A DNA stretch of 64,000 nucleotides, taken from the sequence record PZ862964.1. One strand, given 5' to 3'. Both the position numbers and the translations under genes were made by a program. Numbering within the stretch: position 1 is the stretch's first letter; every line of letters starts with the position of its first letter. Shown here one piece after another: positions 1 to 59,541 of this stretch. The notes under the pieces were generated by a model. That model was not told the DNA's origin and made no database searches. It worked only from the letters and a program-made list of their open reading frames with translations. The DNA is from a phage.

Positions 1-1393
1 GAATTACATTAAGTTTCCAATGGGTTCACTTGATATTGCTCCATCACGCGAAGCTCTTTCATTAGATGATCGTACTCGTAAAAATATTATTGAACGAGTT
101 AAAGAACTCAGTGAGAAAGCATTTAATGAAGATGTAAAACGATTTAAAGAATCTACATCTCCTCGTCATACATACCGTGAATTGATGAAGATGGGGTATT
201 CTGCTCGAGATTATATGATTAGCAATTCAGTCAAATTCACGACTAAAAATCTGTCATATAAAAAGATGCAGAGCATGTTTGAACCTGACAGTAAGTTATG
301 CAATGCAGGGGTTGTGTATGAAGTAAATCTTGACCCTCGACTGAAGCGCATTAAGCAAAGTCATGAAACTTCAGCCGTTGCATCAAGTTATCGTCTGTTT
401 GGTATTAATACAACAAAAATTAATATCGTTATTGATAATATTAAAAATCGTGTTAATATTGTCCGTGGATTAGCACGTGCGTTAGATGATAGTGAATTTA
501 ATAACACTCTGAATATTCATCATAATGAGCGTCTTCTGTTTATTAATCCAGAAGTAGAATCACAGATTGATTTACTCCCTGATATTATGGCGATGTTTGA
601 AAGTGATGAAGTTAACATTCATTATTTGTCAGAAATTGAAGCTTTAGTTAAAAGCTATATTCCAAAGGTAGTTAAAAGTAAAGCTCCTCGTCCTAAAGCT
701 GCTACAGCATTTAAGTTTGAAATTAAAGATGGGCGATGGGAAAAAGAGGAACTATTTACACTTACGTCAGAAGCAGATGAAATTACTGGTTATGTAGCGT
801 ATATGCATCGTTCTGATATTTTCTCTATGGATGGTACTACATCGCTTTGTCATCCATCTATGAATATTTTGATTCGTATGGCTAATCTTATTGGCATTAA
901 TGAATTTTATGTTATTCGTCCGCTTTTGCAGAAAAAGGTAAAAGAGCTTGGTCAGTGCCAATGTATTTTTGAAGCTTTACGTGATTTATATGTAGATGCT
1001 TTTGATGATGTAGATTATGATAAGTATGTAGGTTATTCAAGTTCAGCTCAACGATATATTGATAAAATTATCAAGCATCCTGAACTAGATTTTATGATGA
1101 AGTACTTCAGTACAGATGAAGTTTCTGAAGAATATACACGACTTGGTAATATGGTTAGTTCATTGCGTGGTGTATATTTTAATGGTGGAAAAGATACCAT
1201 CGGTCATGACATCTGGACAGTAACTAATCTTTTTGATGTATTATCAAATAATGCTTCAAAAAACAGTGATAAAATGGTTGCTGAGTTTACCAAGAAATTC
1301 CGTATTGTTTCCGACTTCATCGGATATCGCAACTCTTTAAGTGATGATGAAGTTTCCCAAATCGCCAAAACTATGAAGGCCCTTGCGGCCTAA
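1..1393 (+). CDS. rIIA: rIIA protein, 3' portion (5' end outside window)
   Basis: Frame open from window edge to stop at 1391-1393; directly upstream of rIIB as in T-even phages; identity by synteny only. Confidence 0.7.
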
Positions 1394-1404
1394 TAAGGAA
1401 AATT

Positions 1405-2343
1405 ATGTACAATATTAAATGCCTGACCAAAAACGAACAAGCTGAAATTGTTAAACTGTATTCAAGTGGTAATTACACTCAGCAGGAATTAGCTTATTGG
1501 AAGGATGTATCGGTTGACACAATCCGTCGTGTTTTGAAAAATGCTGAAGAAGCTAAACGCCCTAAAGTTACTATTAGCGGTGATATTACAGTTAAAGTTA
1601 ATAGCGATGCAGTTATTGCTCCAGTTGCTAAATCTGACATTATTTGGAATGCATCTAAAAAATTCATTTCAATTACCGTTGACGGCGTAACTTATAACGC
1701 AACTCCTAATACTCATTCAAACTTCCAGGAAATTCTTAATCTGCTTGTAGCAGATAAGCTGGAAGAAGCTGCGCAAAAAATTAACGTTCGTCGCGCTGTT
1801 GAAAAATATATTTCCGGTGATGTTCGAATTGAAGGTGGAAGCTTGTTCTATCAAAATATTGAATTGCGGTCTGGTTTGGTTGATCGTATTCTTGACTCGA
1901 TGGAAAAAGGTGAAAACTTTGAATTTTATTTTCCGTTCTTGGAAAATCTGCTGGAAAACCCAAGCCAAAAAGCGGTATCTCGACTCTTTGATTTCTTGGT
2001 AGCAAACGATATTGAAATCACCGAAGATGGTTACTTCTATGCTTGGAAAGTAGTTCGCAGCAATTACTTTGACTGTCACTCAAACACCTTTGATAACAGT
2101 CCGGGTAAAGTAGTTAAAATGCCACGTACTCGTGTGAATGACGATGATACACAAACTTGTTCTCGTGGTCTGCATGTGTGTTCTAAATCTTATATTCGTC
2201 ACTTTGGCAGTTCAACTAGCCGAGTTGTAAAAGTTAAAGTACATCCTCGCGATGTAGTATCAATTCCGATTGATTACAACGACGCTAAAATGCGTACCTG
2301 CCAATACGAAGTAGTTGAAGACGTTACTGAACAATTTAAATAA
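1405..2343 (+). CDS. rIIB: rIIB protein
   Basis: 312-aa ORF with SD AAGGAAAAT upstream; length and N-terminus MYNIKCLTKNEQ agree with recalled T4 rIIB. Confidence 0.85.
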   Translation: MYNIKCLTKNEQAEIVKLYSSGNYTQQELAYWKDVSVDTIRRVLKNAEEAKRPKVTISGDITVKVNSDAVIAPVAKSDIIWNASKKFISITVDGVTYNATPNTHSNFQEILNLLVADKLEEAAQKINVRRAVEKYISGDVRIEGGSLFYQNIELRSGLVDRILDSMEKGENFEFYFPFLENLLENPSQKAVSRLFDFLVANDIEITEDGYFYAWKVVRSNYFDCHSNTFDNSPGKVVKMPRTRVNDDDTQTCSRGLHVCSKSYIRHFGSSTSRVVKVKVHPRDVVSIPIDYNDAKMRTCQYEVVEDVTEQFK

Positions 2344-2374
2344 GGGCTTCGGCCCTTAACTAAGGAAAATTATG
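2329..2374 (+). repeat. direct repeat copy 1 (gene end + hairpin + RBS)
   Basis: ACAATTTAAATAA-GGGCTTCGGCCC-TT..TAAGGAAAATTATG; second copy at 2552-2606. Confidence 0.7.
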
Positions 2375-2566
2375 TTAGGTTATCAAGCACGAGTAAAAGA
2401 AGAATACGATCAATTAATGCTCAAAATTAATGCACTGAGCAAATTTTTAGAAAGCGCAAAGTTTCTAACAGTTAGTGCAGTTGAGCAAGAACTGCTACTT
2501 TCACAGTTCATCTCAATGAAATCTTATGCTGAATGTCTAGAGAAAAGAATTGCACAATTCAAATAA
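2372..2566 (+). CDS. hypothetical protein (64 aa)
   Basis: ORF with SD TAAGGAAAA; bracketed by two copies of a GGGCTTCGGCCC hairpin module. Confidence 0.5.
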   Translation: MLGYQARVKEEYDQLMLKINALSKFLESAKFLTVSAVEQELLLSQFISMKSYAECLEKRIAQFK

Positions 2567-2606
2567 AATAAGGGCTTCGGCCCTTTTGTTTTAAGGAAAA
2601 ATTATG
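2552..2606 (+). repeat. direct repeat copy 2 (gene end + hairpin + RBS)
   Basis: ACAATTCAAATAA-aata-GGGCTTCGGCCC-TT..TAAGGAAAAATTATG. Confidence 0.7.
2570..2592 (+). terminator. intrinsic terminator-like hairpin
   Basis: AAGGGC-TTCG-GCCCTT followed by TTTGTTTT. Confidence 0.55.
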
Positions 2607-2933
2607 ATTTATTGTATGAATATCGGTGATTCCGACATAAAAGAGATTAAACTGCACGGAAATCATCACGCTAATATTGTGTACTGTAATAAATTTGAGT
2701 TTGGTCACGAAAAACTTGGGTTTCTTTACTGTAATGATGTTATAGTCATGGATAAAAAGGAGCTCGATGAACTTGACCGCGAGTCTTTAGATGAAAATGA
2801 CCGAATTTATTATGGCACTCTTAAAGTATATAACGCCTATCTCAGTGGTAAAAAGGAAAGTCTAAATGCAGAAAACGAATCCGGGTTTACAGAGACTATT
2901 TCAGATTCCGACATTTACCCTATCGAACAGTGA
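2604..2933 (+). CDS. hypothetical protein (109 aa)
   Basis: ORF with SD TAAGGAAAAA 7 nt upstream; no recognisable motif. Confidence 0.5.
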   Translation: MIYCMNIGDSDIKEIKLHGNHHANIVYCNKFEFGHEKLGFLYCNDVIVMDKKELDELDRESLDENDRIYYGTLKVYNAYLSGKKESLNAENESGFTETISDSDIYPIEQ

Positions 2934-3423
2934 CTTGACTAGTGAAATGAAGGTCAAAATTGCTGATACAGCAAGATACTCTTTAAAACAAAATCCGAAT
3001 CAGGATAAGGCAGAAGTTATCGAAAGATGCCGTATCGCTGTGTACGCAGAGTTTTTTGTAGCAGATTGGCTAAGCGGATATGTCAATAAAGGCCAAGAGG
3101 ATGTTAATGACCCGTATACATACGCATGGGATGTATTGGCGCATCCAAGATACTGCGGGCTTCGTGTAGAAGTTAAGACACACCAAACTGACTCACGTTG
3201 GATTTCTGTAACAACAGGATGCAGCGGAGAGTATCCATACGGTTCTGGAATAAATCTAGGGCCCATTCTGAATCATCAGGTCGCTGACTGTATAATTATA
3301 TTCAACACTAAAGAAATTCATCCAGGTGTCATCCAGTACACTCCGAAGTTCATTGGTGATAGAGAAGACCTTCGTAAGGTTGTAAGAAAAAGCAACTACA
3401 ACGGATGGTATCTTTCCATTTAA
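2866..3423 (+). CDS. denB: endonuclease IV (DenB)-like protein
   Basis: 185-aa ORF, same length as recalled T4 DenB and in its position next to rIIB; start uncertain (68-nt overlap with upstream ORF). Confidence 0.6.
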   Translation: MQKTNPGLQRLFQIPTFTLSNSDLTSEMKVKIADTARYSLKQNPNQDKAEVIERCRIAVYAEFFVADWLSGYVNKGQEDVNDPYTYAWDVLAHPRYCGLRVEVKTHQTDSRWISVTTGCSGEYPYGSGINLGPILNHQVADCIIIFNTKEIHPGVIQYTPKFIGDREDLRKVVRKSNYNGWYLSI

Positions 3424-3439
3424 AAATTTTCACAAAACG

Positions 3440-3469
3440 GTTTACATACCACAAGGACCGTGGTACTAT
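3440..3469 (+). promoter_or_regulatory. early-type promoter
   Basis: GTTTAC, 18-nt spacer, TACTAT; shares TTTTCACAAAACGGTTTACA and GGTACTATACAACTATC blocks with three other loci. Confidence 0.55.
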
Positions 3470-3496
3470 ACAACTATCAGCTACGGAGGAGTAAAA

Positions 3497-3760
3497 ATGA
3501 AATTTAAATTTTATTACGCTAAACATAAAATTACCGGTGAATTTATTGCATTTACGACTTCAACTACAGGTGAAGGAGATATTTTTACTGCAGTATTTTT
3601 ATCAAAATGGGAATCAGATCAACCTTACTTATCATCATGTGAAGATCTCCAACGATTAGTTAATGGAGAATATAATGATTCATGGTCATATTTAGTCCAT
3701 GATTGTGTTAAAAAGGCAATAAAACAAAAACACTTGGAAATCGTTGAGATTGAACTATGA
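3497..3760 (+). CDS. hypothetical protein (87 aa)
   Basis: ORF preceded by early-type promoter and SD GGAGGAG. Confidence 0.55.
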   Translation: MKFKFYYAKHKITGEFIAFTTSTTGEGDIFTAVFLSKWESDQPYLSSCEDLQRLVNGEYNDSWSYLVHDCVKKAIKQKHLEIVEIEL

Positions 3761-3839
3761 GTTCATTATGGTGGTGTTTTGTTTGGTTAATTAGTATTCC
3801 AGTAATTTGTTTAACATTTACTTTTGTGATGAGGTTATT

Positions 3840-3938
3840 ATGAAAATTTTGAATTCTGTACTTATTGCTTGTGCGTGGTGGGTTGTGCAAGTTTCAGCGG
3901 TAGTAGTTGGTATTCACATTTATTACGAATATTTTTAA
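3840..3938 (+). CDS. hypothetical 32-aa hydrophobic peptide
   Basis: ATG 5 nt after GAGG; MKILNSVLIACAWWVVQVSAVVVGIHIYYEYF; too short for ORF track. Confidence 0.3.
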   Translation: MKILNSVLIACAWWVVQVSAVVVGIHIYYEYF

Positions 3939-3945
3939 AAAAGTT

Positions 3946-3975
3946 GTTTACAAGACTGTTCCTCTGTGGTACTAT
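3946..3975 (+). promoter_or_regulatory. early-type promoter nested in inverted repeat
   Basis: GTTTAC, 18 nt, TACTAT; arms CTGTTCCTC (3956-3964) and GAGGAACAG (3992-4000), the latter containing the SD. Confidence 0.55.
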
Positions 3976-4003
3976 ACAACTATCAACTACGGAGGAACAG
4001 AAA

Positions 4004-4117
4004 ATGAAAAAGATTGTTAAAGCTATATGGAATGTAGTTATAATACTAATAGTTTTGAGTATATTCCCAATCGTTTTAATGATTGATGTATTAAACGTTT
4101 ACTTTGGATTTATGTGA
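4004..4117 (+). CDS. hypothetical 37-aa membrane peptide
   Basis: ATG after SD GGAGGA (3991-3996); the longer ORF-track version crosses the promoter and is unlikely. Confidence 0.5.
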   Translation: MKKIVKAIWNVVIILIVLSIFPIVLMIDVLNVYFGFM

Positions 4118-4124
4118 GGAAAAT

Positions 4125-4322
4125 ATGAAGCGTAAACGCAGTGCTTTTACATTTATTGAATGGTTTTTCGATAATATTTTTCCGGCTTTATTCATTTTCA
4201 TGCTGATTTTTGCCTTAGGTTCAGTTGTAGTTGGAATCTATTTGATGACAGTAGTCGGAATTGATATTCATCAAAATGGTTTAAAATCCGTAGTTGAAAC
4301 AATTTGGAATGGTGTAAAATGA
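4125..4322 (+). CDS. hypothetical 65-aa membrane protein
   Basis: ATG after SD GAGGA; hydrophobic core FPALFIFMLIFALGSVVVGIYLMTVVGI. Confidence 0.5.
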   Translation: MKRKRSAFTFIEWFFDNIFPALFIFMLIFALGSVVVGIYLMTVVGIDIHQNGLKSVVETIWNGVK

Positions 4323-4429
4323 TGAATTTACTAAACATTTGGTTTTATATTCTTATGTTTTACATTGGTGCAAATTTCCCATATTGGATGGGATGGTCAA
4401 CAACTGCATTTGGATTTTATACTCCTTGA
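4319..4429 (+). CDS. hypothetical 36-aa hydrophobic peptide
   Basis: ATGA start/stop overlap with preceding ORF; aromatic-rich hydrophobic sequence. Confidence 0.4.
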   Translation: MMNLLNIWFYILMFYIGANFPYWMGWSTTAFGFYTP

Positions 4430-4437
4430 GGTGAATT

Positions 4438-4653
4438 ATGAAAAGTTTTAAAGATGTAAAAGTTGGTGAAATTTTTTGTTTAGATAACGGTGATCAGTTA
4501 ATTCGTATTTCACCTCTTAAGAGCACTAGCGAGAAACCGACAGTTAATGCTACTTTAGCAAATAATAGTAATGAACGTTTCTGTATTGAAAATGATACTG
4601 AAACTTATACCGTAGAAGAATTCTGGGAATTGAGCGTCGACTGCGACGATTAA
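4438..4653 (+). CDS. hypothetical protein (71 aa)
   Basis: ORF with SD GAGGTGA upstream. Confidence 0.5.
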   Translation: MKSFKDVKVGEIFCLDNGDQLIRISPLKSTSEKPTVNATLANNSNERFCIENDTETYTVEEFWELSVDCDD

Positions 4654-23166: not shown

Positions 23167-23174
23167 TTGCTTAT

Positions 23175-23182
23175 TATAAATA
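23175..23182 (+). promoter_or_regulatory. late promoter-like TATAAATA upstream of gene 32
   Basis: TATAAATAGATTATAAT about 85 nt upstream of gene 32 ATG. Confidence 0.45.
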
Positions 23183-23199
23183 GATTATAATTATCTCAC

Positions 23200-23265
23200 T
23201 GACCAGCTATGAGGTCATACATCGTCATAGCACCAACTGTTAATTAAATTAAAAAGGAAATAAAA
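23200..23265 (+). promoter_or_regulatory. gene 32 translational operator (pseudoknot plus A/U-rich leader)
   Basis: Interleaved pairings TGACC/GGTCA and GCTATGA/TCATAGC (23200-23231) followed by TTAATTAAATTAAAAAGGAAATAAAA. Confidence 0.7.
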
Positions 23266-25351: not shown

Positions 25352-25684
25352 ATGTCTGACATTCATGTAACTGGAATTTCACAAGTAAACATCCGCTGCC
25401 AATTTAAAACTGTACCTGGGGTGACTCATATTACTTTATCACACGACCCATATTCTCGTGGAAGACAGTTAACTGGTATAATTAAGTTTTTCGGTGGAAT
25501 TGGCGGAAACGAATTTACTATAGGCGATGACGAAATTGTTGGCTGTAAATTAAAAGTTCAGAAGGGCGTGTTAGAACTTTTTAGTGATGAAGTTTTTGAT
25601 GAAATCTCACGAGCAGTTAACAAAGGAATGTTAACGTTAATTAAAATGATTAAAGCTAGCGGATATGTTCCTGATCCTTTTTAA
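25352..25684 (+). CDS. hypothetical protein (110 aa)
   Basis: ORF with SD GAGGAAAATATTATG. Confidence 0.55.
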   Translation: MSDIHVTGISQVNIRCQFKTVPGVTHITLSHDPYSRGRQLTGIIKFFGGIGGNEFTIGDDEIVGCKLKVQKGVLELFSDEVFDEISRAVNKGMLTLIKMIKASGYVPDPF

Positions 25685-25695
25685 TAGGAGATAAT

Positions 25696-26522
<827 letters not shown>

Positions 26523-26934: not shown

Positions 26935-27795
26935 ATGAAACAATACCAAGATTTAATTAAAGACATTTTTGAAAATGGCTATGAAACCGATGACCGAACA
27001 GGCACAGGAACAATTGCTTTGTTCGGTACTAAATTACGCTGGGATTTAACTAAAGGTTTTCCTGCAGTAACAACTAAGAAGCTCGCCTGGAATGCATGTA
27101 TTGCTGAGCTTCTATGGTTTATTTCCGGTTCTACCAATGTTAATGATTTACGTCTTCGCACTCATGGCAGTCTTATTCAAGGTAAAACTATTTGGGACGA
27201 TAACTATGAAAACCAGGCTAAAGACCTAGGATATCATAGTGGTGAACTTGGTCCTATATACGGTAAACAATGGCGTGATTTCGGTGGTGTGGATCAATTA
27301 GTTGAAACTATTGATCGTATTAAAAAATTACCAACTGATCGACGTCAAATCGTTTCAGCATGGAATCCAGCTGAAATCAATCAAATGGCATTACCGCCCT
27401 GTCATATGTTCTATCAGTTTAATGTGCGTAATGGTTATCTTGATTTACAATGGTACCAAAGAAGTGTAGATGTTTTCTTGGGCTTGCCATTCAACATTGC
27501 CTCGTACGCTGCCTTGACGCATATTGTGGCTAAGATGTGTAATCTTATCCCAGGAGATTTGATATTTTCCGGTGGTAATACTCACATCTATATGAATCAT
27601 ACTGAGCAATGTAAAGAAATTTTACGTCGTGAGCCTAAAGAACTGTGTGAACTTAAAATTGATTGGCCTATAGAGTTTGGAAATTGTGACACCGAAACGC
27701 AGCTTTACTGGTTAACTGAATACATGAAACCGAAAGATTTTATCCTTGAAAATTATGAATCGCATCCAGCAATTAAAGGGAAAATGGCAATATGA
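26935..27795 (+). CDS. td: thymidylate synthase (uninterrupted, no intron)
   Basis: Continuous 286-aa ORF with TS active-site motif LPPCH and N-terminus [15 protein letters not shown]. Confidence 0.95.
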
Positions 27796-28335: not shown

Positions 28336-30590
28336 TTAATGTTATCAAAAGTAGTGGTGTTTCTCAGAGCTTTGACCCGCAAAAAATTATTAAAGTTTTA
28401 TCTTGGGCAGCTGAAGGAACATCAGTAGATCCTTATGAATTATATGAAAACATTAAATCTTATCTCCGTGATGGAATGACAACTGATGATATTCAGACTA
28501 TTGTCATTAAGGCCGCTGCGAATTCTATTTCGGTTGAAGAACCTGATTATCAATATGTAGCTGCACGCTGTTTAATGTTCGCTCTTCGTAAGCATGTTTA
28601 TGGGCAGTATGAACCACGTTCATTTATTGACCATATTTCTTACTGTGTAAATGCAGGTAAATACGACCCTGAATTATTGTCAAAATATTCAGCAGAAGAA
28701 ATTACATTTTTAGAATCAAAAATTAAGCACGAACGGGATATGGAATTTACTTATTCCGGGGCGATGCAATTAAAAGAAAAATATCTAGTTAAAGATAAAA
28801 CCACTGGTCAAATTTATGAAACTCCACAGTTTGCATTTATGGCTATTGGAATGGCATTGCATCAAGATGAACCTGTTGATAGATTAAAACATGTTATTCG
28901 TTTTTATGAAGCAGTATCTACTCGACAGATTTCATTGCCAACTCCTATTATGGCTGGTTGCCGTACTCCGACTCGACAGTTTAGTTCATGCGTTGTTATT
29001 GAAGCTGGTGATTCATTGAAGTCAATTAATAAAGCTTCTGCTTCAATTGTTGAATATATTTCTAAACGCGCTGGAATTGGAATTAACGTTGGTATGATTC
29101 GTGCCGAAGGTTCTAAGATTGGCACTGGTGAAGTACGTCATACTGGTGTTATTCCTTTTTGGAAACATTTTCAGACTGCAGTTAAATCATGTTCACAGGG
29201 TGGAATTCGTGGCGGCGCTGCTACTGCTTATTATCCTATTTGGCATTTGGAAGTTGAAAATCTTCTCGTTTTGAAAAATAACAAAGGCGTAGAAGAAAAC
29301 CGCATTCGTCATATGGATTATGGTGTTCAGCTGAATGATTTGATGATGGAACGTTTTGGAAAGAACGATTACATTACTTTGTTCAGTCCACATGAAATGG
29401 GTGGAGAGCTTTATTATTCTTATTTTAAAGACCAAGACCGTTTCCGTGAATTATACGAAGCAGCAGAAAAAGACCCTAATATTCGCAAAAAGCGTATTAA
29501 AGCCCGTGAACTATTTGAATTGCTCATGACTGAACGTTCAGGAACAGCAAGGATTTATGTACAGTTCATTGATAATACGAATAACTATACTCCATTTATT
29601 CGTGAAAAGGCACCTATTCGTCAGAGCAACTTGTGCTGTGAAATTGCTATTCCAACAAATGATGTGAATAGCCCCGATGCTGAAATTGGATTGTGTACTC
29701 TCTCTGCATTCGTACTGGATAATTTTGACTGGCAAGACCAAGATAAAATTAATGAATTGGCAGAAGTCCAAGTTCGTGCTCTTGATAATCTTTTGGATTA
29801 CCAAGGATATCCAGTTCCTGAAGCAGAAAAAGCTAAAAAGCGTCGTAACCTCGGTGTAGGTGTTACCAACTATGCAGCTTGGCTGGCAAGTAACTTTGCT
29901 TCTTATGAAGATGCTAACGATTTAACACATGAACTATTTGAGAGATTACAGTATGGACTCATTAAAGCATCCATTAAGCTCGCCAAAGAAAAAGGACCTT
30001 GCGAATATTATTCAGACACTCGTTGGTCTCGAGGCGAATTACCTATCGACTGGTACAATAAAAAGATTGACCAAATCGCAGCTCCAAAATACGTTTGTGA
30101 CTGGTCGTCGCTGCGGGAAGACCTTAAGCTCTTTGGCATCCGTAATAGCACATTATCAGCACTTATGCCATGTGAGTCATCTTCCCAAGTTTCTAACAGT
30201 ACAAACGGTATCGAGCCTCCACGTGGACCAGTCTCTGTTAAAGAATCAAAAGAGGGCTCCTTTAATCAAGTCGTGCCCAATATTGAGCATAACATAGACC
30301 TCTATGATTATACATGGAAATTAGCTAAGAAAGGTAATAAACCTTATCTTACGCAGGTAGCTATTATGCTGAAATGGGTATGTCAATCAGCTTCAGCGAA
30401 TACATACTATGACCCGCAGATTTTTCCAAAAGGAAAGGTTCCAATGTCAATAATGATTGATGACATGCTATACGGATGGTATTATGGCATTAAAAACTTC
30501 TATTATCATAATACCCGCGATGGTTCTGGTACTGATGATTATGAAATAGAAACTCCAAAAGCTGAAGATTGTTCATCCTGTAAATTATGA
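28326..30590 (+). CDS. nrdA: ribonucleotide reductase large subunit NrdA
   Basis: 754-aa ORF, same size as recalled T4 NrdA; class I RNR features. Confidence 0.95.
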   Translation: MQLINVIKSSGVSQSFDPQKIIKVLSWAAEGTSVDPYELYENIKSYLRDGMTTDDIQTIVIKAAANSISVEEPDYQYVAARCLMFALRKHVYGQYEPRSFIDHISYCVNAGKYDPELLSKYSAEEITFLESKIKHERDMEFTYSGAMQLKEKYLVKDKTTGQIYETPQFAFMAIGMALHQDEPVDRLKHVIRFYEAVSTRQISLPTPIMAGCRTPTRQFSSCVVIEAGDSLKSINKASASIVEYISKRAGIGINVGMIRAEGSKIGTGEVRHTGVIPFWKHFQTAVKSCSQGGIRGGAATAYYPIWHLEVENLLVLKNNKGVEENRIRHMDYGVQLNDLMMERFGKNDYITLFSPHEMGGELYYSYFKDQDRFRELYEAAEKDPNIRKKRIKARELFELLMTERSGTARIYVQFIDNTNNYTPFIREKAPIRQSNLCCEIAIPTNDVNSPDAEIGLCTLSAFVLDNFDWQDQDKINELAEVQVRALDNLLDYQGYPVPEAEKAKKRRNLGVGVTNYAAWLASNFASYEDANDLTHELFERLQYGLIKASIKLAKEKGPCEYYSDTRWSRGELPIDWYNKKIDQIAAPKYVCDWSSLREDLKLFGIRNSTLSALMPCESSSQVSNSTNGIEPPRGPVSVKESKEGSFNQVVPNIEHNIDLYDYTWKLAKKGNKPYLTQVAIMLKWVCQSASANTYYDPQIFPKGKVPMSIMIDDMLYGWYYGIKNFYYHNTRDGSGTDDYEIETPKAEDCSSCKL

Positions 30591-30641
30591 TATAATTTGA
30601 CTCATGGACGAGTCACCAACTATTAACTAAGCGGAAAATTT

Positions 30642-31820
30642 ATGAGCACAGTTTTTAATACAAATCCAGTTGATGTTTTAAAAGAACCTATGTTTTTTGG
30701 TTCAGGTCTTGGTATTGCGCGTTATGATATTCAACGGCATCGAGTATTTGAAGAACTTACAGAGAAGTCCTTATCATTTTTCTGGCGTCCCGAAGAAGTA
30801 AACTTGATGATGGATGCTGCACAGTTTAATAAGCTTCCTCAGTATCAGCAAAATATTTTTACTAATAATCTGAAGTATCAATCACTTTTGGATAGCATTC
30901 AGGGTCGTGCGCCGTCTGCTGTACTTATGTCATTAATTTCAGACCCAAGCCTTGATACATGGGTTGCTACGTGGACTTTTAGTGAAACTATTCACAGCCG
31001 TTCATATACACATATCATGCGAAATCTTTATACTGATCCATCGAAGGTATTTGATGAGATTGTATTAGATGAAGCTATTATGAAACGTGCTGAATCCATT
31101 GGGCGTTATTATGATGATGTTCTGATTAAAACCCGTGAATGGGAAAATGCTAAAGAATTTGTAGAACTAGCTAAAGAATCTCCTGATGCTGTCTTTCGTT
31201 TAAACCGAGCTATTAAACAAGAAGCCGAAGCTAAACGTGCTTTAATGAAATCTCTTTACCTCTGTTTGCATGTAATCAACGCATTGGAAGCTATTCGTTT
31301 TTATGTATCTTTCGCATGTACCTTTAACTTCCATAAAAACATGGAAATCATGGAAGGTAATGCCAAAATTATGAAGTTCATTGCACGTGATGAGCAGCTT
31401 CACCTTAAAGGCACTCAATATATTATTCGTCAACTTCAATCTGGTACTGATGGCGATGAATGGGTTAAAATTGCTCAAGAGTGTGAACAAGAAGCAGTTG
31501 ATATTTTCATGGAAGTTAACCGCCAAGAAAAAGATTGGGCAGTTCATTTATTTAAAGACGGCGATGTTCCTGGATTAAATACAAATAGCATGTGGAGCTT
31601 TATTGATTACTTAACTGTATCTCGTATGAAACAGTGTGGTCTTCCATGCCCAATTACCGATGCTCCGGTTAAACATCCGTATCCTTGGATTCGTGAATAT
31701 CTTAATTCTGATAATGTTCAATCCGCGCCACAAGAAGTAGAACTGTCATCTTATCTTGTAGCACAGATTGATAATGATGTTGATGATAAAGTTATGATGA
31801 GTTTTAAAAAATATTTTTAA
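30642..31820 (+). CDS. nrdB: ribonucleotide reductase small subunit NrdB (uninterrupted, no intron)
   Basis: Continuous 392-aa ORF with di-iron E..H motifs (SETIHSRSY; ARDEQLH). Confidence 0.95.
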   Translation: MSTVFNTNPVDVLKEPMFFGSGLGIARYDIQRHRVFEELTEKSLSFFWRPEEVNLMMDAAQFNKLPQYQQNIFTNNLKYQSLLDSIQGRAPSAVLMSLISDPSLDTWVATWTFSETIHSRSYTHIMRNLYTDPSKVFDEIVLDEAIMKRAESIGRYYDDVLIKTREWENAKEFVELAKESPDAVFRLNRAIKQEAEAKRALMKSLYLCLHVINALEAIRFYVSFACTFNFHKNMEIMEGNAKIMKFIARDEQLHLKGTQYIIRQLQSGTDGDEWVKIAQECEQEAVDIFMEVNRQEKDWAVHLFKDGDVPGLNTNSMWSFIDYLTVSRMKQCGLPCPITDAPVKHPYPWIREYLNSDNVQSAPQEVELSSYLVAQIDNDVDDKVMMSFKKYF

Positions 31821-34867: not shown

Positions 34868-36074
<1,207 letters not shown>

Positions 36075-36805: not shown

Positions 36806-37333
36806 ATGAGCGAATGGTTTGAAGAAGATAAGGTTTATCGCTTTAAAACTGGGTATAAAGATATTTTTAATGAAACTTGCGGGGCTAATAAACGAATTGC
36901 CCAGTTTATTGGGGAAAATTCATTTAAAGTAAAAATAGATCCTGCGAAGAATGTTATTAGCATTAAACGCGAAATTGATGACTGCTGGTATAAAGCTATT
37001 GATGTAATGGGCGAATCCTATAAAGATAGCCCGTTATTTTCAATTGCTTATATGTTAGAATATTCTTTTTTCGAAGAAGTTCAAAAAGATGATTCTGTCA
37101 GTAAATTTGAAATTAAAGCTGATAAAGAAATTAAGTGGAAAGTAGTAGGTATTACTGGTTGTATGTTTTATATCTATGCTCAAACTGATACGAAGGAAGA
37201 AGCTAAAAAGAAAGCTCTAGAATATCTTGAAGAGCATGAAGAAGGTCCGGTAATGATTACTCAAGATGCTGAATTAGTTTCTGTCAAATTAGTTAAAAAT
37301 GTTGAAAGTAAGGAGCTGGGATCAACATGCTAA
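36806..37333 (+). CDS. hypothetical protein (175 aa)
   Basis: ORF with SD GAGGAAATTGAAATG downstream of an early-type promoter. Confidence 0.55.
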   Translation: MSEWFEEDKVYRFKTGYKDIFNETCGANKRIAQFIGENSFKVKIDPAKNVISIKREIDDCWYKAIDVMGESYKDSPLFSIAYMLEYSFFEEVQKDDSVSKFEIKADKEIKWKVVGITGCMFYIYAQTDTKEEAKKKALEYLEEHEEGPVMITQDAELVSVKLVKNVESKELGSTC

Positions 37334-40596: not shown

Positions 40597-40962
40597 ATGA
40601 ACTACATTAACTTTGAACGTAAATATGTTTCTAATGGTATTGCAGGTTCTATTGATACCATCTGCCTTTGGAAACATCAAAATGGATCAGTATGCGAAAT
40701 TGAACAATATATGACTCCTAATTACGTTTATATGCGATTTGAAAACGGTATCACGGTTTCAATCACGATGGAAGGTTCCAACTTCAAAATCGCTCTGGAT
40801 GATGATTTCCGTCAACGCGATTTAGGGACTCATCCTTGCTGGAATGGCGTTAATCGCAAGCTTTTGGTTAAAACTTGGATTCGTCATATTCTGAGTAACA
40901 GAGCTAAACCTGAGCATCTTGAAGCAATCTTTGATGTAGTTCTTAATGAATTTGATATTTAA
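40597..40962 (+). CDS. hypothetical protein (121 aa)
   Basis: ATG after SD GGAG; ORF-track start 40585 is TTG. Confidence 0.5.
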   Translation: MNYINFERKYVSNGIAGSIDTICLWKHQNGSVCEIEQYMTPNYVYMRFENGITVSITMEGSNFKIALDDDFRQRDLGTHPCWNGVNRKLLVKTWIRHILSNRAKPEHLEAIFDVVLNEFDI

Positions 40963-41002
40963 AATAAAATGGGGGCTTCGGCCCCTTACTGAGGAAAATA
41001 TT

Positions 41003-41290
41003 ATGTTTATGACTACTTATTTTGATACCCGCAAAAATTTCTGCGAAGTGGTTTTCTCAAAGGCGCCTAAAGACCTTCCTGCTCATTTGCAGCCTACCAG
41101 TGAATCGATTAAAAACTACGTTGATGTGGTTTGTCCTTTAGAGTTCCGTACTGTAAATGGGCGCGATACTTTAGCTATCACTAAACTCAATCGCGAAATT
41201 GACATTGACCCTTCAATTGCGCGTGAAATTAACATTTCTGATATTGGCGGCGGTAATGTTAAATCGCACGGTTTTCAGATGAGGTTCTAA
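41003..41290 (+). CDS. hypothetical protein (95 aa)
   Basis: ATG after SD GAGGAAAA; ORF-track N-terminal extension crosses a hairpin. Confidence 0.45.
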   Translation: MFMTTYFDTRKNFCEVVFSKAPKDLPAHLQPTSESIKNYVDVVCPLEFRTVNGRDTLAITKLNREIDIDPSIAREINISDIGGGNVKSHGFQMRF

Positions 41291-58000: not shown

Positions 58001-59512
58001 TTATAAATTAACTGTTTTCATTACGTAATTGAATTTTTCATCTGCGTAGCGCTGAATACGATCAATGCCGTGTTTTAAAAGATAGTTCAAATGAACATAT
58101 TTCTTTTTCGTATTAGCAGATTTTGGCTTAACACCACAATCATCTATGAGGTCCCAGACTGTTGCTATTGTCTTAGAACCATGCTTACGTAATACACGAC
58201 CGATTGTTTGTAATACAATGATTTTTGATTTAACACCGTGCGCTAAAACAACGTGATGCAGATTTTTAACTGAAATACCAGTAGAAAATACGCCATAACT
58301 CGCTACTATAATTATTCCTTTACCATTTTCAGCTAAGGTTTTCATTATATTGCGGGTTTCGGTATCAACTTCCCCTGATACGTAATAAACTTTATCATAT
58401 TCATTTTTAATTAAATCGAAAATAGCTTTACCATGCGATACATGTTTAAACATGACAAAAGCGTTTTCATCTTTTTGCGCAAGCTTAATAGCTAATTTAG
58501 CGATCCATTTATTTCTTTTACTGAGCCCAGTAATAATTTTTATTTCTTCTTGGTAAGTTTTTCCCTTTAATTTAGTAGTGAACTCATCGGGATAGCGAAG
58601 AAAAATACTATTAATTTTTAGCTCAGTTACTTGTCCATCTTCCATTAATTTAGAAGTCGTTACTGGTTTAAATATTTCACCAAACATTCCAACATACTGC
58701 ATGATATTGGCTTTGCCATCACGTAATGAACCTGATAGACCAAATTTAAACATGCAGTTATTTAAACCTGATATGATAGATGAAATACTTTTTCCTGTAG
58801 CAAGATGGCATTCATCATTCATCATCATTCCAAACTGTGAGAACCATTCTTTTGGTTGTTTTACTACAGTTTGCCATGTACCAACAACGACTGGTGCATC
58901 ATTTTTATATTTATCATCTTTTGATGCTCCGCCACCAATTTTCTTTATCATTGCATGACTGAATAAACGATAGTCAACAAAGTCATCAGCCATCTGAGTT
59001 GTTAGAGCAGTTGTTGGAACAATGATAAGAATTTTACCTTCATAATTTTCCAAATAATATCGCGCAAGCAAAGCTTGAATTAAAGATTTACCTGCAGATG
59101 TTGGAAGATTAAGAATTCTACGACGATTAACTAATCCTTCGAACACTGCATCTTTTTGATACCAGTGCGGTTCAATTCTTTTATTTCCTGAATAGATTTC
59201 TAATTTAGAAAGCCATTCATCAAAATCTTTTCTTGATAATTCTTCTTTTTCGTTAATTTGTGGATCAATCCAGGCTTTATAGCCAAAATTATCACAGAAC
59301 TTTTTAATTTGCCCGACTAAGCCGAATGGAAGAAGACGATTATAATCTAAAAGACGGATTCGTCCATCCCAGTGGCCATATTTGTATTTCGGATTAAAAC
59401 GATACCCATCAGCTTCAAAGCTAAAGAAATCACGGAGTTCATGAAATGTACTTTCTTCACAATCAATTCTCACGTGACTAAAATCATAAAAATGTACTTT
59501 AATGTCAGTCAT
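58001..59512 (-). CDS. uvsW: DNA helicase UvsW
   Basis: 503-aa ORF with helicase motifs TSAGKS and DECH; TATAAATA late promoter upstream. Confidence 0.9.
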   Translation of the reverse strand: MTDIKVHFYDFSHVRIDCEESTFHELRDFFSFEADGYRFNPKYKYGHWDGRIRLLDYNRLLPFGLVGQIKKFCDNFGYKAWIDPQINEKEELSRKDFDEWLSKLEIYSGNKRIEPHWYQKDAVFEGLVNRRRILNLPTSAGKSLIQALLARYYLENYEGKILIIVPTTALTTQMADDFVDYRLFSHAMIKKIGGGASKDDKYKNDAPVVVGTWQTVVKQPKEWFSQFGMMMNDECHLATGKSISSIISGLNNCMFKFGLSGSLRDGKANIMQYVGMFGEIFKPVTTSKLMEDGQVTELKINSIFLRYPDEFTTKLKGKTYQEEIKIITGLSKRNKWIAKLAIKLAQKDENAFVMFKHVSHGKAIFDLIKNEYDKVYYVSGEVDTETRNIMKTLAENGKGIIIVASYGVFSTGISVKNLHHVVLAHGVKSKIIVLQTIGRVLRKHGSKTIATVWDLIDDCGVKPKSANTKKKYVHLNYLLKHGIDRIQRYADEKFNYVMKTVNL

Positions 59513-59541
59513 GTCTAAATACCATGTAATAAATATATCTA

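Follow-up and report, generated by a model that had tools for sequence, protein, structure and literature searches.

A conserved small gene, denB.1, lies between two copies of an intercistronic hairpin cassette in the rIIB-denB interval of a T-even phage

Gene content and conservation of the rIIB-denB interval

The DNA analysed here, a 64-kb stretch of phage record PZ862964.1 (the window), carries a conserved T-even operon segment in which rIIB is followed by denB.1, a DUF7418 gene and denB (Table 1). The 64-amino-acid reading frame, which immediately follows rIIB and precedes denB, has the same place as denB.1 in T4, and comparison of its product with known proteins identified it as that gene, with 98% amino acid identity to DenB.1 NP_049888 ("ORF64" in GenBank D16359). 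The T4 region has the same two hairpin/RBS repeats, each hairpin being one base shorter (GGCTTCGGCCC; GGGCTTCGGCC) than in PZ862964.1. The product of the following gene matches Pfam PF24193 (E=3.6e-37) and PHROG 2237 and is homologous to RB69 ORF272c; the gene has a 213-bp internal deletion in T4 and is intact here. The T4-style start of denB lies at 2866, and its true start is probably 2947. A perfect 14-nt inverted repeat between rIIB (1880-1893) and denB.1 (2400-2413) is not conserved outside Tequatrovirus and was set aside as a coincidence.

Table 1. Positions of genes, repeats and repeat parts in the window
Feature	Position	Strand	Description
rIIA/rIIB junction	1377..1407	+	hairpin AGGCC-CUUGC-GGCCU within rIIA 3' end, then rIIB start region TAAGGAAAATTATG (fold)
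rIIB CDS	1405..2343	+	312 aa, C-terminus ...EDVTEQFK-stop; 99% identity to T4 rIIB
Repeat R1	2331..2374	+	rIIB end, hairpin, spacer, SD/start region
R1 codon part	2331-2343	+	ACAATTTAAATAA; Q-F-K-stop of rIIB at 2332-2343
R1 hairpin	2344-2355	+	GGGCTTCGGCCC, C(UUCG)G type; extended stem 2341-2358
R1 SD/start region, denB.1	2361-2374	+	TAAGGAAAATTATG
denB.1	2372..2566	+	64 aa, ends Q-F-K-stop; small helical-hairpin protein, function not assigned
Repeat R2	2554..2606	+	denB.1 end, AATAA insert, hairpin, T-run, SD/start region
R2 codon part	2554-2566	+	ACAATTCAAATAA; Q-F-K-stop of denB.1 at 2555-2566
R2 insert	2567-2571	+	additional AATAA, missing from R1
R2 hairpin	2572-2583	+	GGGCTTCGGCCC
R2 T-run	2584-2592	+	TTTTGTTTT
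R2 SD/start region, DUF7418 gene	2592-2606	+	TAAGGAAAAATTATG
DUF7418 gene	2604..2933	+	109 aa; start region is the 3' part of R2
denB (endonuclease IV)	2866..3423	+	PHROG 1360, E=1.8e-97
Third cassette-family member	40960..41005	+	TAAAATAAAATGG-GGGCTTCGGCCC-CTTACTGAGGAAAATATTATG, at T4 30.7/30.6 junction

DenB.1 belongs to a widespread family of conserved small helical proteins and is always found beside rIIB/denB. It matches Pfam PF21825 (crAss001_48-related protein; 68.7 bits against a cut-off of 24.8, E=4.1e-19), with residues 4-61 aligned to profile positions 3-60 of 61, and PHROG 774 (E=1.9e-22). Among 1.84 billion proteins the family accounts for 204 representative clusters, and its invariant residues, as judged from 117 diverse representatives (R7, E11, L15, L22, F25, Q45, M49, Y52, L56 and R59), are all present in the window protein. 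An AF2 model (pLDDT 94.7) consists of two long helices, for which Foldseek returned generic helical hairpins only (E>0.5); the search for a solved relative gave a best PDB match at E=0.51. No match that would suggest a function was found in NCBIfam or PADLOC, a word-indexed homolog search returned close T4-like copies only, and a literature search turned up a single incidental mention of denB.1 and nothing relevant on crAss001 gp48.

The first-pass annotation, made from the letters of the window, had read the 64-amino-acid frame as a unit that looks acquired. Comparison across genera does not support this. The order rIIB-denB.1-DUF7418-denB is also found in Dhakavirus, Gaprivervirus, Kanagawavirus, Marfavirus and Winklervirus, and denB.1 is present in ~497 Tequatrovirus records (at least 80% amino acid identity) as compared to ~498 matches to the region. 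With dN/dS of 0.02-0.32 and dS of up to 0.48, denB.1 is under purifying selection; it is an ancestral gene that has been retained by selection.

Two copies of a dispersed intercistronic cassette

As the first-pass annotation had described, denB.1 is bracketed by two direct repeats, R1 and R2, spaced by 228 bp. The two have in common the QFK-stop codons (12 of 13 nt), a GGGCTTCGGCCCTT hairpin that does not differ between them and the start region TAAGGAAAA(A)TTATG, and a repeat search returned a gapless match of 26 nt at 92% identity with the same spacing. In phage UGKSEcP2 the two copies are identical (27/27 nt), and in other Tequatrovirus they agree at 26/27 nt when the AATAA slip is not counted; the R2 variants of SHFML-11 and UGKSEcP2 are more R1-like than those of the remaining Tequatrovirus. 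Flanks as similar to those of R1 as R2's are were drawn from random window positions 3 times in 20,000. The exact 12-nt hairpin GGGCTTCGGCCC occurs six times in the 64 kb as compared to 0.49 expected copies, so that the hairpin itself is a motif dispersed over the genome rather than one private to this locus. No other CUUCGG stem is as common in the window, and the majority of its copies are arranged as stop, hairpin, Shine-Dalgarno sequence (SD) and ATG. When the CUUCGG-hairpin junctions of the window are compared pairwise (55 pairs), R1/R2 rank second, with R1 scoring 20 against the flanks of the junction at 40973 and 18 against those of R2. R1 and R2 thus belong to a family of repeated cassettes rather than forming a pair of their own: they are two copies of a standard T-even intercistronic cassette made up of a stop codon, a C(UUCG)G hairpin and a Shine-Dalgarno/RegA-type start. 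The rIIA/rIIB junction is the first in a row of three junctions that join a hairpin to a start region.

C(UUCG)G tetraloop hairpins were reportedly described in intercistronic regions of T4 mRNA by Tuerk et al. in 1988. The hairpins at this locus (GGGC-UUCG-GCCC, in both repeats between the stop codon and the following SD) are alike in their exact CUUCGG loop and closing pair on a G/C stem and in their position between cistrons. The literature treats such hairpins as stable elements that stand alone, whereas the two described here lie within longer repeats that extend into the codons before them and the start region after them. The UUCG tetraloop, discovered in T4 mRNA, has exceptional stability (PMC4371310). 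In the window such hairpins are over-represented, and they are conserved with covariation. Across 13 sequences from seven genera, 93.6% of cells in the R1 hairpin are paired, as compared to 32-68% in slid controls, and four of the six pairs show compensatory change while CUUCGG is invariant, which points to an ancient hairpin on the rIIB side. Fold z-scores against shuffles are modest for both repeats (-1.4 to -1.6) because the hairpins are short. No known RNA family was matched in Rfam at E<=1 over positions 1000-4500.

The hairpin after denB.1 has a narrower distribution. It is present in 16/16 Tequatrovirus sequences read and missing in Dhakavirus, Gaprivervirus, Kanagawavirus and Marfavirus; in Winklervirus denB.1 is followed by a hairpin whose stem differs, such that a denB.1-side hairpin is found in Tequatrovirus and Winklervirus only among the genera compared. 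On the + strand R2 resembles an intrinsic terminator, a G/C hairpin followed by TTTTGTTTT (hairpin AAGGGCTTCGGCCCTT, then T-run TTGTTTTAAG), whereas R1 lacks the T-run and is not terminator-like. Similarly, the annotation of phage GiZh marks R2 as a rho-independent terminator, and the equivalent single-hairpin junction is annotated as a terminator in Mosigvirus records. Termination at R2 is a prediction from sequence, and since the stem is short (4-6 bp) it is probably partial.

The start regions resemble operators of the translational repressor RegA. The rIIB start AAAAUUAUGUAC is a RegA-repressed site (PMC3014915). A 15-mer, TAAGGAAAATTATGT, is exactly repeated at the rIIB start (1394-1408) and the denB.1 start (2361-2375), the latter containing the core AAAAUUAUGU of the RegA-repressed rIIB site. 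The DUF7418 start within R2 contains AAAUUAUGAUU, which is identical to the gene 44 site of the same study. Both start regions are A/U-rich and unstructured, with a 5' A-tract and an overlapped AUG, and this likeness makes the denB.1 and DUF7418 starts putative RegA-type sites.

Origin of the downstream repeat and meaning of the arrangement

It had been proposed that R2 copies the 3' end of rIIB and that denB.1 therefore ends in QFK. The C-termini suggest a smaller role for copying. In 117 DenB.1-family proteins the C-terminal hallmark R-I-x-x-F has R in 100%, I in 80% and F in 75%, with K after F (F63/K64) in 25%; the window protein carries this hallmark. The rIIB tail ...DVTEQF is common to Dhakavirus and Gaprivervirus and is ancestral. 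Together, the family statistics and the rIIB tails indicate that the F(K) C-terminus is native to the DenB.1 family and not derived from rIIB, leaving at most the K-stop-hairpin, and perhaps the Q, to have been copied. Among the genera compared, a K-stop that directly abuts the same hairpin plus TT after both genes is found in Tequatrovirus only. Most likely, then, the R2 copy (K-stop and GGGCTTCGGCCCTT, perhaps with the Q codon and start region) arose or was homogenised in the stem lineage of Tequatrovirus. This event is deduced from just ~20 nt, and independent convergence on the phage's favourite hairpin could explain them instead. Since rIIB and DenB identities leave the branching of Tequatrovirus, Mosigvirus and Dhakavirus unsettled, the timing of the origin of R2 is uncertain.

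The reading we favour, with a probability of about 75%, is that the locus is an old conserved gene arrangement with two punctuation cassettes and not a recent mobile unit. Each cassette combines an extra-stable C(UUCG)G hairpin, preceded by a stop codon in A-rich sequence, with a downstream Shine-Dalgarno/AUG region of the A/U-rich type to which the T4 repressor RegA binds. On the polycistronic early/middle mRNA the hairpins may fold autonomously, shield every start region from structure upstream and stabilise or punctuate the message. R2, the sole repeat with a U-run, could serve as an attenuator or terminator after denB.1, and the near-identical start regions might place rIIB, denB.1 and the next gene in one translational regime. 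R2 itself probably arose through ectopic copying of a short tract, or through gene conversion, from the junction next to it, starting at the ...(Q/R)-F codons that already existed in both genes. In a T-even genome, an open reading frame enclosed by direct repeats can thus represent regulatory punctuation around an old selected gene rather than a footprint of mobility.

Excision and the empty site in Mosigvirus

The repeats, at 27-45 bp, are potential substrates of T4 homologous recombination, and a comparison of the rIIB-denB interval in relatives did reveal a natural empty site. In Mosigvirus (RB69-type) denB.1 is absent from 153/153 records, and the junction consists of the rIIB stop, one CUUCGG hairpin, a T-run, an SD and the ATG of the DUF7418 homolog. 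It is now documented that denB.1 is fixed in Tequatrovirus and absent in Mosigvirus with a single-hairpin junction. This junction is the exact product expected of repeat recombination; other deletion routes fit as well. It resembles an R1/R2 hybrid and shows that denB.1 can be lost. In view of that loss and of the hybrid-like junction, recombination between such cassettes may matter more than our favoured reading allows. Promoter-less cassettes of stop, CUUCGG hairpin and RBS, in addition to the promoter-bearing PeSL (promoter-early stem-loop) cassettes, would then serve T4-type recombination as movable patches of homology: an R1xR2 exchange would account for the loss of denB.1 in the Mosigvirus ancestor, and occasional gene conversion from R1 to R2, seen in the SHFML-11 and UGKSEcP2 variants, would be ongoing in Tequatrovirus. 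If so, the denB.1 unit would be excisable and kept in Tequatrovirus by selection for a DenB.1 function linked to rIIB/denB. We regard this extended scenario as unlikely.

Also unlikely is that denB.1 with one repeat (~230 bp) is a cassette that entered, or can leave, by recombination between the repeats, like the PeSL-bounded modules and mini-circles of RB49/phi1. The 228-bp spacing of two direct repeats of 27-45 bp, the precedent of cassette shuffling and mini-circles in T4-type phages (PMC2839356; PMC4122927), the Mosigvirus junction and the R1-like R2 of SHFML-11 and UGKSEcP2, which could reflect gene conversion, are all consistent with such movement. However, denB.1 is ancestral and keeps its gene order across six genera, of which four lack any second repeat, and the ~497 Tequatrovirus genomes, despite dS of up to 0.48, show no presence/absence polymorphism of denB.1. 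The Mosigvirus junction could equally be a deletion from an ancestor without R2, since R1 of Marfavirus and Winklervirus also carries a T-run. The claim that the unit is excisable at present found no support either: using a match threshold calibrated beforehand, the predicted R1xR2 deletion junction was found in 0 of 50,697 phage records. It was likewise not found in the IMG/VR or JGI metagenomes, where the wild-type junction occurs just 2 and 6 times, respectively, so that these negatives weigh little. Deletions do arise at this locus, as the DUF7418 gene has repeatedly lost sequence through 5-7 nt microhomologies in Tequatrovirus, yet they never fall between R1 and R2; in Tequatrovirus any deletants are evidently purged by selection. 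The first-pass annotation had named, as what would refute its reading, an identical arrangement in all relatives with both repeats diverged; all close relatives do carry the identical arrangement, but their repeats are conserved and not decayed. Hairpin cassettes as general indel boundaries were rejected: no break in the alignment of the window with T4 coincides with a CUUCGG hairpin, and the closest break, the DUF7418 deletion, starts 56-73 nt downstream of the R2 hairpin.

Pure convergence, in which each junction gained the preferred hairpin and start region independently and the shared Q-F-K-stop is coincidental, seems improbable: the family-native F63 and K64, the ancestral ...EQF of rIIB, the abundance of the GGGCTTCGGCCC stem, the unrelated 40973 junction, which matches R1 no less closely than R2 does, and the different Winklervirus stem, by which such hairpins arise repeatedly, all speak for it, but the Tequatrovirus-specific abutment after both genes, the 26-27 nt of identity and a rough, post hoc product of per-feature frequencies that would come to ~1e-4 speak against it. 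A transposon with target-site duplication is dismissed on inspection: a transposase and terminal inverted repeats are both lacking, and what is repeated is regulatory sequence common to other junctions.

A close published parallel is the PeSL of T4-type phages, a repeated intergenic cassette that flanks small accessory open reading frames and consists of an upstream stop within A/T-rich sequence, then a stem-loop, then SD and ATG of the next gene (PMC2839356; PMC4122927). PeSL cassettes are proposed substrates for recombination and mini-circles (PMC2839356, Arbiol et al. 2010; PMC4122927, Comeau et al. 2014). R1 and R2 share the stable stem-loop, the upstream stop in A/T-rich sequence and the 3' SD and ATG. 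A PeSL also has a sigma70-like early promoter (-35/N17/-10; TTTACW...TAYWAT in the T4/PST pair), whereas no sigma70-type promoter was found on the + strand within 2344-2371 or 2567-2603, where the stop-to-ATG gaps are just 28 nt (R1) and 37 nt (R2). Membership was rejected on this ground. Furthermore, the flanked denB.1 is conserved and not an ORFan, and there is no indel polymorphism at R1/R2 within Tequatrovirus, the absence in Mosigvirus fitting at the genus level only. T4 denB.1, the CUUCGG hairpin type and PeSL-like repeated cassettes around small open reading frames are all already established, and the locus is ordinary and largely known. Promoter-bearing repeats are located a little downstream of the locus, at 3436-3497 and 3942-4005.

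Direct repeats around denB.1 and their cassette family

The 64-aa ORF that follows rIIB is T4 DenB.1, which it matched at 98% identity in the database comparison proposed by the first-pass annotation; an old GenBank entry for T4 has the identical protein (100%) as "ORF64". The annotation correctly observed that direct repeats bracket this ORF, and its interpretation was supported in part. The copies, R1 at the end of rIIB and R2 at the end of denB.1, are spaced 228 bp apart, and their similarity is not noise, because only 3 of 20,000 random positions had flanks this similar. Both are present in T4, each hairpin one base shorter there. We best read the repeats as conserved regulatory punctuation around a known T4 gene. 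The arrangement itself was already known, since the T4 reference genome is annotated rIIB - denB.1 - denB across the same interval and every component was established before this analysis; its interest for discovery is therefore low.

Features of the first 6 kb, with segments of the two repeats and a third cassette
Feature	Position	Strand	Sequence
rIIA, 3' part	window start	+	
rIIB	1405-2343	+	
R1, Q-F-K-stop of rIIB	2331-2343		ACAATTTAAATAA
R1, hairpin	2344-2355		GGGCTTCGGCCC; then TTAAC
R1, start region	2361-2374		TAAGGAAAATTATG
64-aa ORF (denB.1)	2372-2566	+	
R2, Q-F-K-stop of 64-aa ORF	2554-2566		ACAATTCAAATAA; then AATAA
R2, hairpin	2572-2583		GGGCTTCGGCCC; then TTTTGTTT
R2, start region	2592-2606		TAAGGAAAAATTATG
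109-aa ORF (DUF7418)	2604-2933	+	
denB, then small ndd-region ORFs up to gene 52		+	
Third cassette, T4 30.7/30.6 junction	40960-41005		TAAAATAAAATGG-GGGCTTCGGCCC-CTTACTGAGGAAAATATTATG

R1 and R2 are not the only such copies. The 64 kb contain the exact 12-mer GGGCTTCGGCCC six times (0.49 expected), besides three near-copies, and most copies share a layout of stop codon, hairpin, 5-10 nt, Shine-Dalgarno sequence and ATG. The third cassette scores 20 against R1, as compared with 18 for R2. The start region also has a 15-mer, TAAGGAAAATTATGT, that recurs unchanged at the rIIB start; a hairpin within the end of rIIA (1377-1407) precedes that start. Three successive junctions thus carry a hairpin and the same start region, and R1 and R2 are therefore two members of a cassette family. 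A 14-nt perfect inverted repeat between rIIB (1880-1893, TTGATCGTATTCTT) and denB.1 (2400-2413, AAGAATACGATCAA), also found in T4, is probably coincidence, because the complementarity is not kept in Dhakavirus or Marfavirus.

Hairpins and start regions

The hairpin after rIIB was found in all genera examined by alignment, with CUUCGG invariant and compensatory changes in four of its six stem pairs (stems GGGC/GCCC, GGAGGC/GCCUCC, GGGGAC/GUCCCC and GGAGAC/GUCUCC). Paired cells made up 93.6% of the alignment, versus 32-68% in controls with the 3' side slid; together, covariation and pairing excess are good evidence that this hairpin is under selection as a structure. UUCG tetraloops have exceptional stability, and it was in T4 mRNA that they first came to notice (PMC4371310). 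The region is not covered by any Rfam family. After denB.1, Tequatrovirus has a hairpin, and so does Winklervirus, where the stem differs; Dhakavirus, Gaprivervirus, Kanagawavirus and Marfavirus have none, and their denB.1 runs up to or into the following ATG. The sense-strand T-run of an intrinsic terminator is present in R2 and not in R1, and other annotators have marked R2 as a terminator.

Published T4 sites repressed by the translational repressor RegA include rIIB AAAAUUAUGUAC and gene 44 AAAUUAUGAUU (PMC3014915). The DUF7418 start shares AAAUUAUGAUU with gene 44, and the denB.1 start contains AAAAUUAUGU, which resembles the rIIB site, so that RegA may reasonably be proposed as a common translational control of these starts.

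Inheritance and loss of denB.1, and a search for its excision

DenB.1 is a member of Pfam PF21825 (68.7 bits against a cut-off of 24.8) and PHROG 774. An exhaustive profile-free search returned 204 representative clusters; most are proteins of 60-75 aa that stand alone. Its AlphaFold model is a confident helical hairpin (pLDDT 94.7); structure and sequence searches of the PDB gave no informative relative, and defence families and NCBIfam gave no match.

The suggestion that the unit was acquired is contradicted by its distribution. Dhakavirus, Gaprivervirus, Kanagawavirus, Marfavirus and Winklervirus all retain the order rIIB - denB.1 - DUF7418 - denB, with DenB.1 identities of 46-59%, and DenB.1 and rIIB identities rank the genera alike, so that inheritance looks vertical. 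The 1.6 kb around denB.1 matched 527 phage records, 498 of them at ≥90% identity (Tequatrovirus in those examined; best matches 98.8%), and 497 Tequatrovirus records encode DenB.1 at ≥80% identity. Its dN/dS is 0.02-0.32; with dS, a measure of neutral divergence, reaching 0.48, the conserved repeats are kept by function and not by youth. In Krischvirus RB49 (L014 1981-3314), denB.1, DUF7418, denB and the post-rIIB CUUCGG hairpin are all missing, and an unrelated 108-aa ORF lies 14 nt after rIIB.

The unit had also been called excisable, and no deletant was found. The predicted deletion junction was used as a BLAST query calibrated locally, wild-type genomes giving a best E-value of ~5e-31 and simulated deletants (crossover in any of three repeat segments, ≤5% divergence) 4e-39 or lower; at E≤1e-36 there was no match in 50,697 phage records. 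Among 520 records matching a longer chimeric query, the 30 listed all aligned as two pieces spanning the query plus 228 bp. IMG/VR and JGI metagenomes, in which only 2 and 6 wild-type junctions occur, were scanned for exact patterns and likewise gave no deletant, and alignment of the window with T4 had no break at any CUUCGG hairpin. Neighbouring deletions do arise. DUF7418, intact here, has lost 213 bp in T4 (about 2639-2851) at a TAAAAG/TAAAAAG microhomology, so the "intergenic" denB.1-denB spacer of T4 is a gene remnant; a further deletion (ATGATT|CCGACAT) occurs in PhiZZ23, Shfl2 and a metagenome contig (L027). DUF7418 thus decays recurrently beside an always-intact denB.1, and products of recombination between R1 and R2, if formed, do not persist. 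From the T4-style start at 2866, denB (185 aa) shares 68 nt with the intact DUF7418 ORF, which is read in a different frame; in RB69 and in several Tequatrovirus annotations denB begins at the ATG that corresponds to 2947 (158 aa), probably the true start.

The proposed comparison of relatives revealed a real empty site only in Mosigvirus. In RB69, rIIB ends ...TELFAE-stop, followed by TAATT, GGGGACTTCGGTCCCC, TTTTTTCTTTAGGGGTAATT and the ATG of ORF272c, a DUF7418 homolog (34% identity, E=7e-17), with no denB.1 at the locus; this junction is one contiguous match in 153 Mosigvirus records. Because six other genera carry denB.1, its absence here is a loss. Recombination between R1 and R2 fits, the single-hairpin junction being its expected product. 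Deletion from an ancestor without R2 fits equally well, since R1 of Marfavirus and Winklervirus carries a T-run too and the compared proteins leave the Tequatrovirus/Mosigvirus/Dhakavirus branching order unsettled.

Repeat identity and comparison with PeSL-type modules

The claim that R2 copies the rIIB 3' end holds at most for a small part, the K-stop, hairpin and TT. Across 117 diverse DenB.1-family members the C-terminal R59-I60-x-x-F63 hallmark is conserved at 100%, 80% and 75%; residue 64 is K in 25% of them and absent in 26%. The C-termini of orthologs from other genera are RIARF, RIQRF, RISYFGE or RISNFDF. The rIIB tail reads ...DVTEQF in Gaprivervirus, ...DVTEQFANEYKY in Dhakavirus and ...DVTEKF... 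in Kanagawavirus, so that an ending around x-F is native to both proteins. The K-stop abutting an identical hairpin and TT, in both genes together, is Tequatrovirus-specific. From these sequences we read the extra identity as a short, lineage-specific copy or gene conversion between neighbouring junctions, which would have been seeded on microhomology already present at both gene ends; pure convergence is the weaker alternative. R2 variants in SHFML-11 (L016 750-790, GAACAATTCAAATAAGGGC; DenB.1 end RIEQFK) and UGKSEcP2 (L018 1080-1120, ACAATTTAAATAAGGGC) lack the AATAA insert and are nearer R1 than the majority R2 form (26/27 and 27/27 nt identical, respectively), and could derive from R1-to-R2 gene conversion or from slippage in the A/T run.

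Promoter-early stem-loop (PeSL) cassettes combine a strong sigma70-type promoter with a stem-loop, a stop upstream and SD/ATG downstream; ORFans lie beside them, and both indels and mini-circles are mediated by these cassettes (PMC2839356; PMC4122927). R1 and R2 have the same arrangement of stop, stem-loop and SD/ATG and are PeSL-like in architecture and potential, but were rejected as PeSLs: they have no promoter, the gene between them is conserved, and indels within the genus are not bounded by them. A closely similar pair of early-promoter cassettes at 3436-3497 and 3942-4005 (TTTACA-N17-TACTAT, ...CTACGGAGGA..., SD, ATG) encloses ORFs of 87 aa (3497-3760) and 43 aa (3807-3938), and segment 3487-3735 is missing from T4; by its sequence, the 3436-4005 region appears to be a true module of the PeSL type. 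Compared with T4, the window is missing segG, the td intron/I-TevI, mobE with nrdB.1, the nrdB intron and segE (sites of missing sequence at 23167-23203, 27482-27487, 30586-30642, 31315-31318 and 59506-59526), and carries extra DNA, roughly 300-560 bp each, near frd/frd.1, pseT/cd.5 and cd.2/cd.3 (25363-25925, 34874-35170 and 36808-37328).
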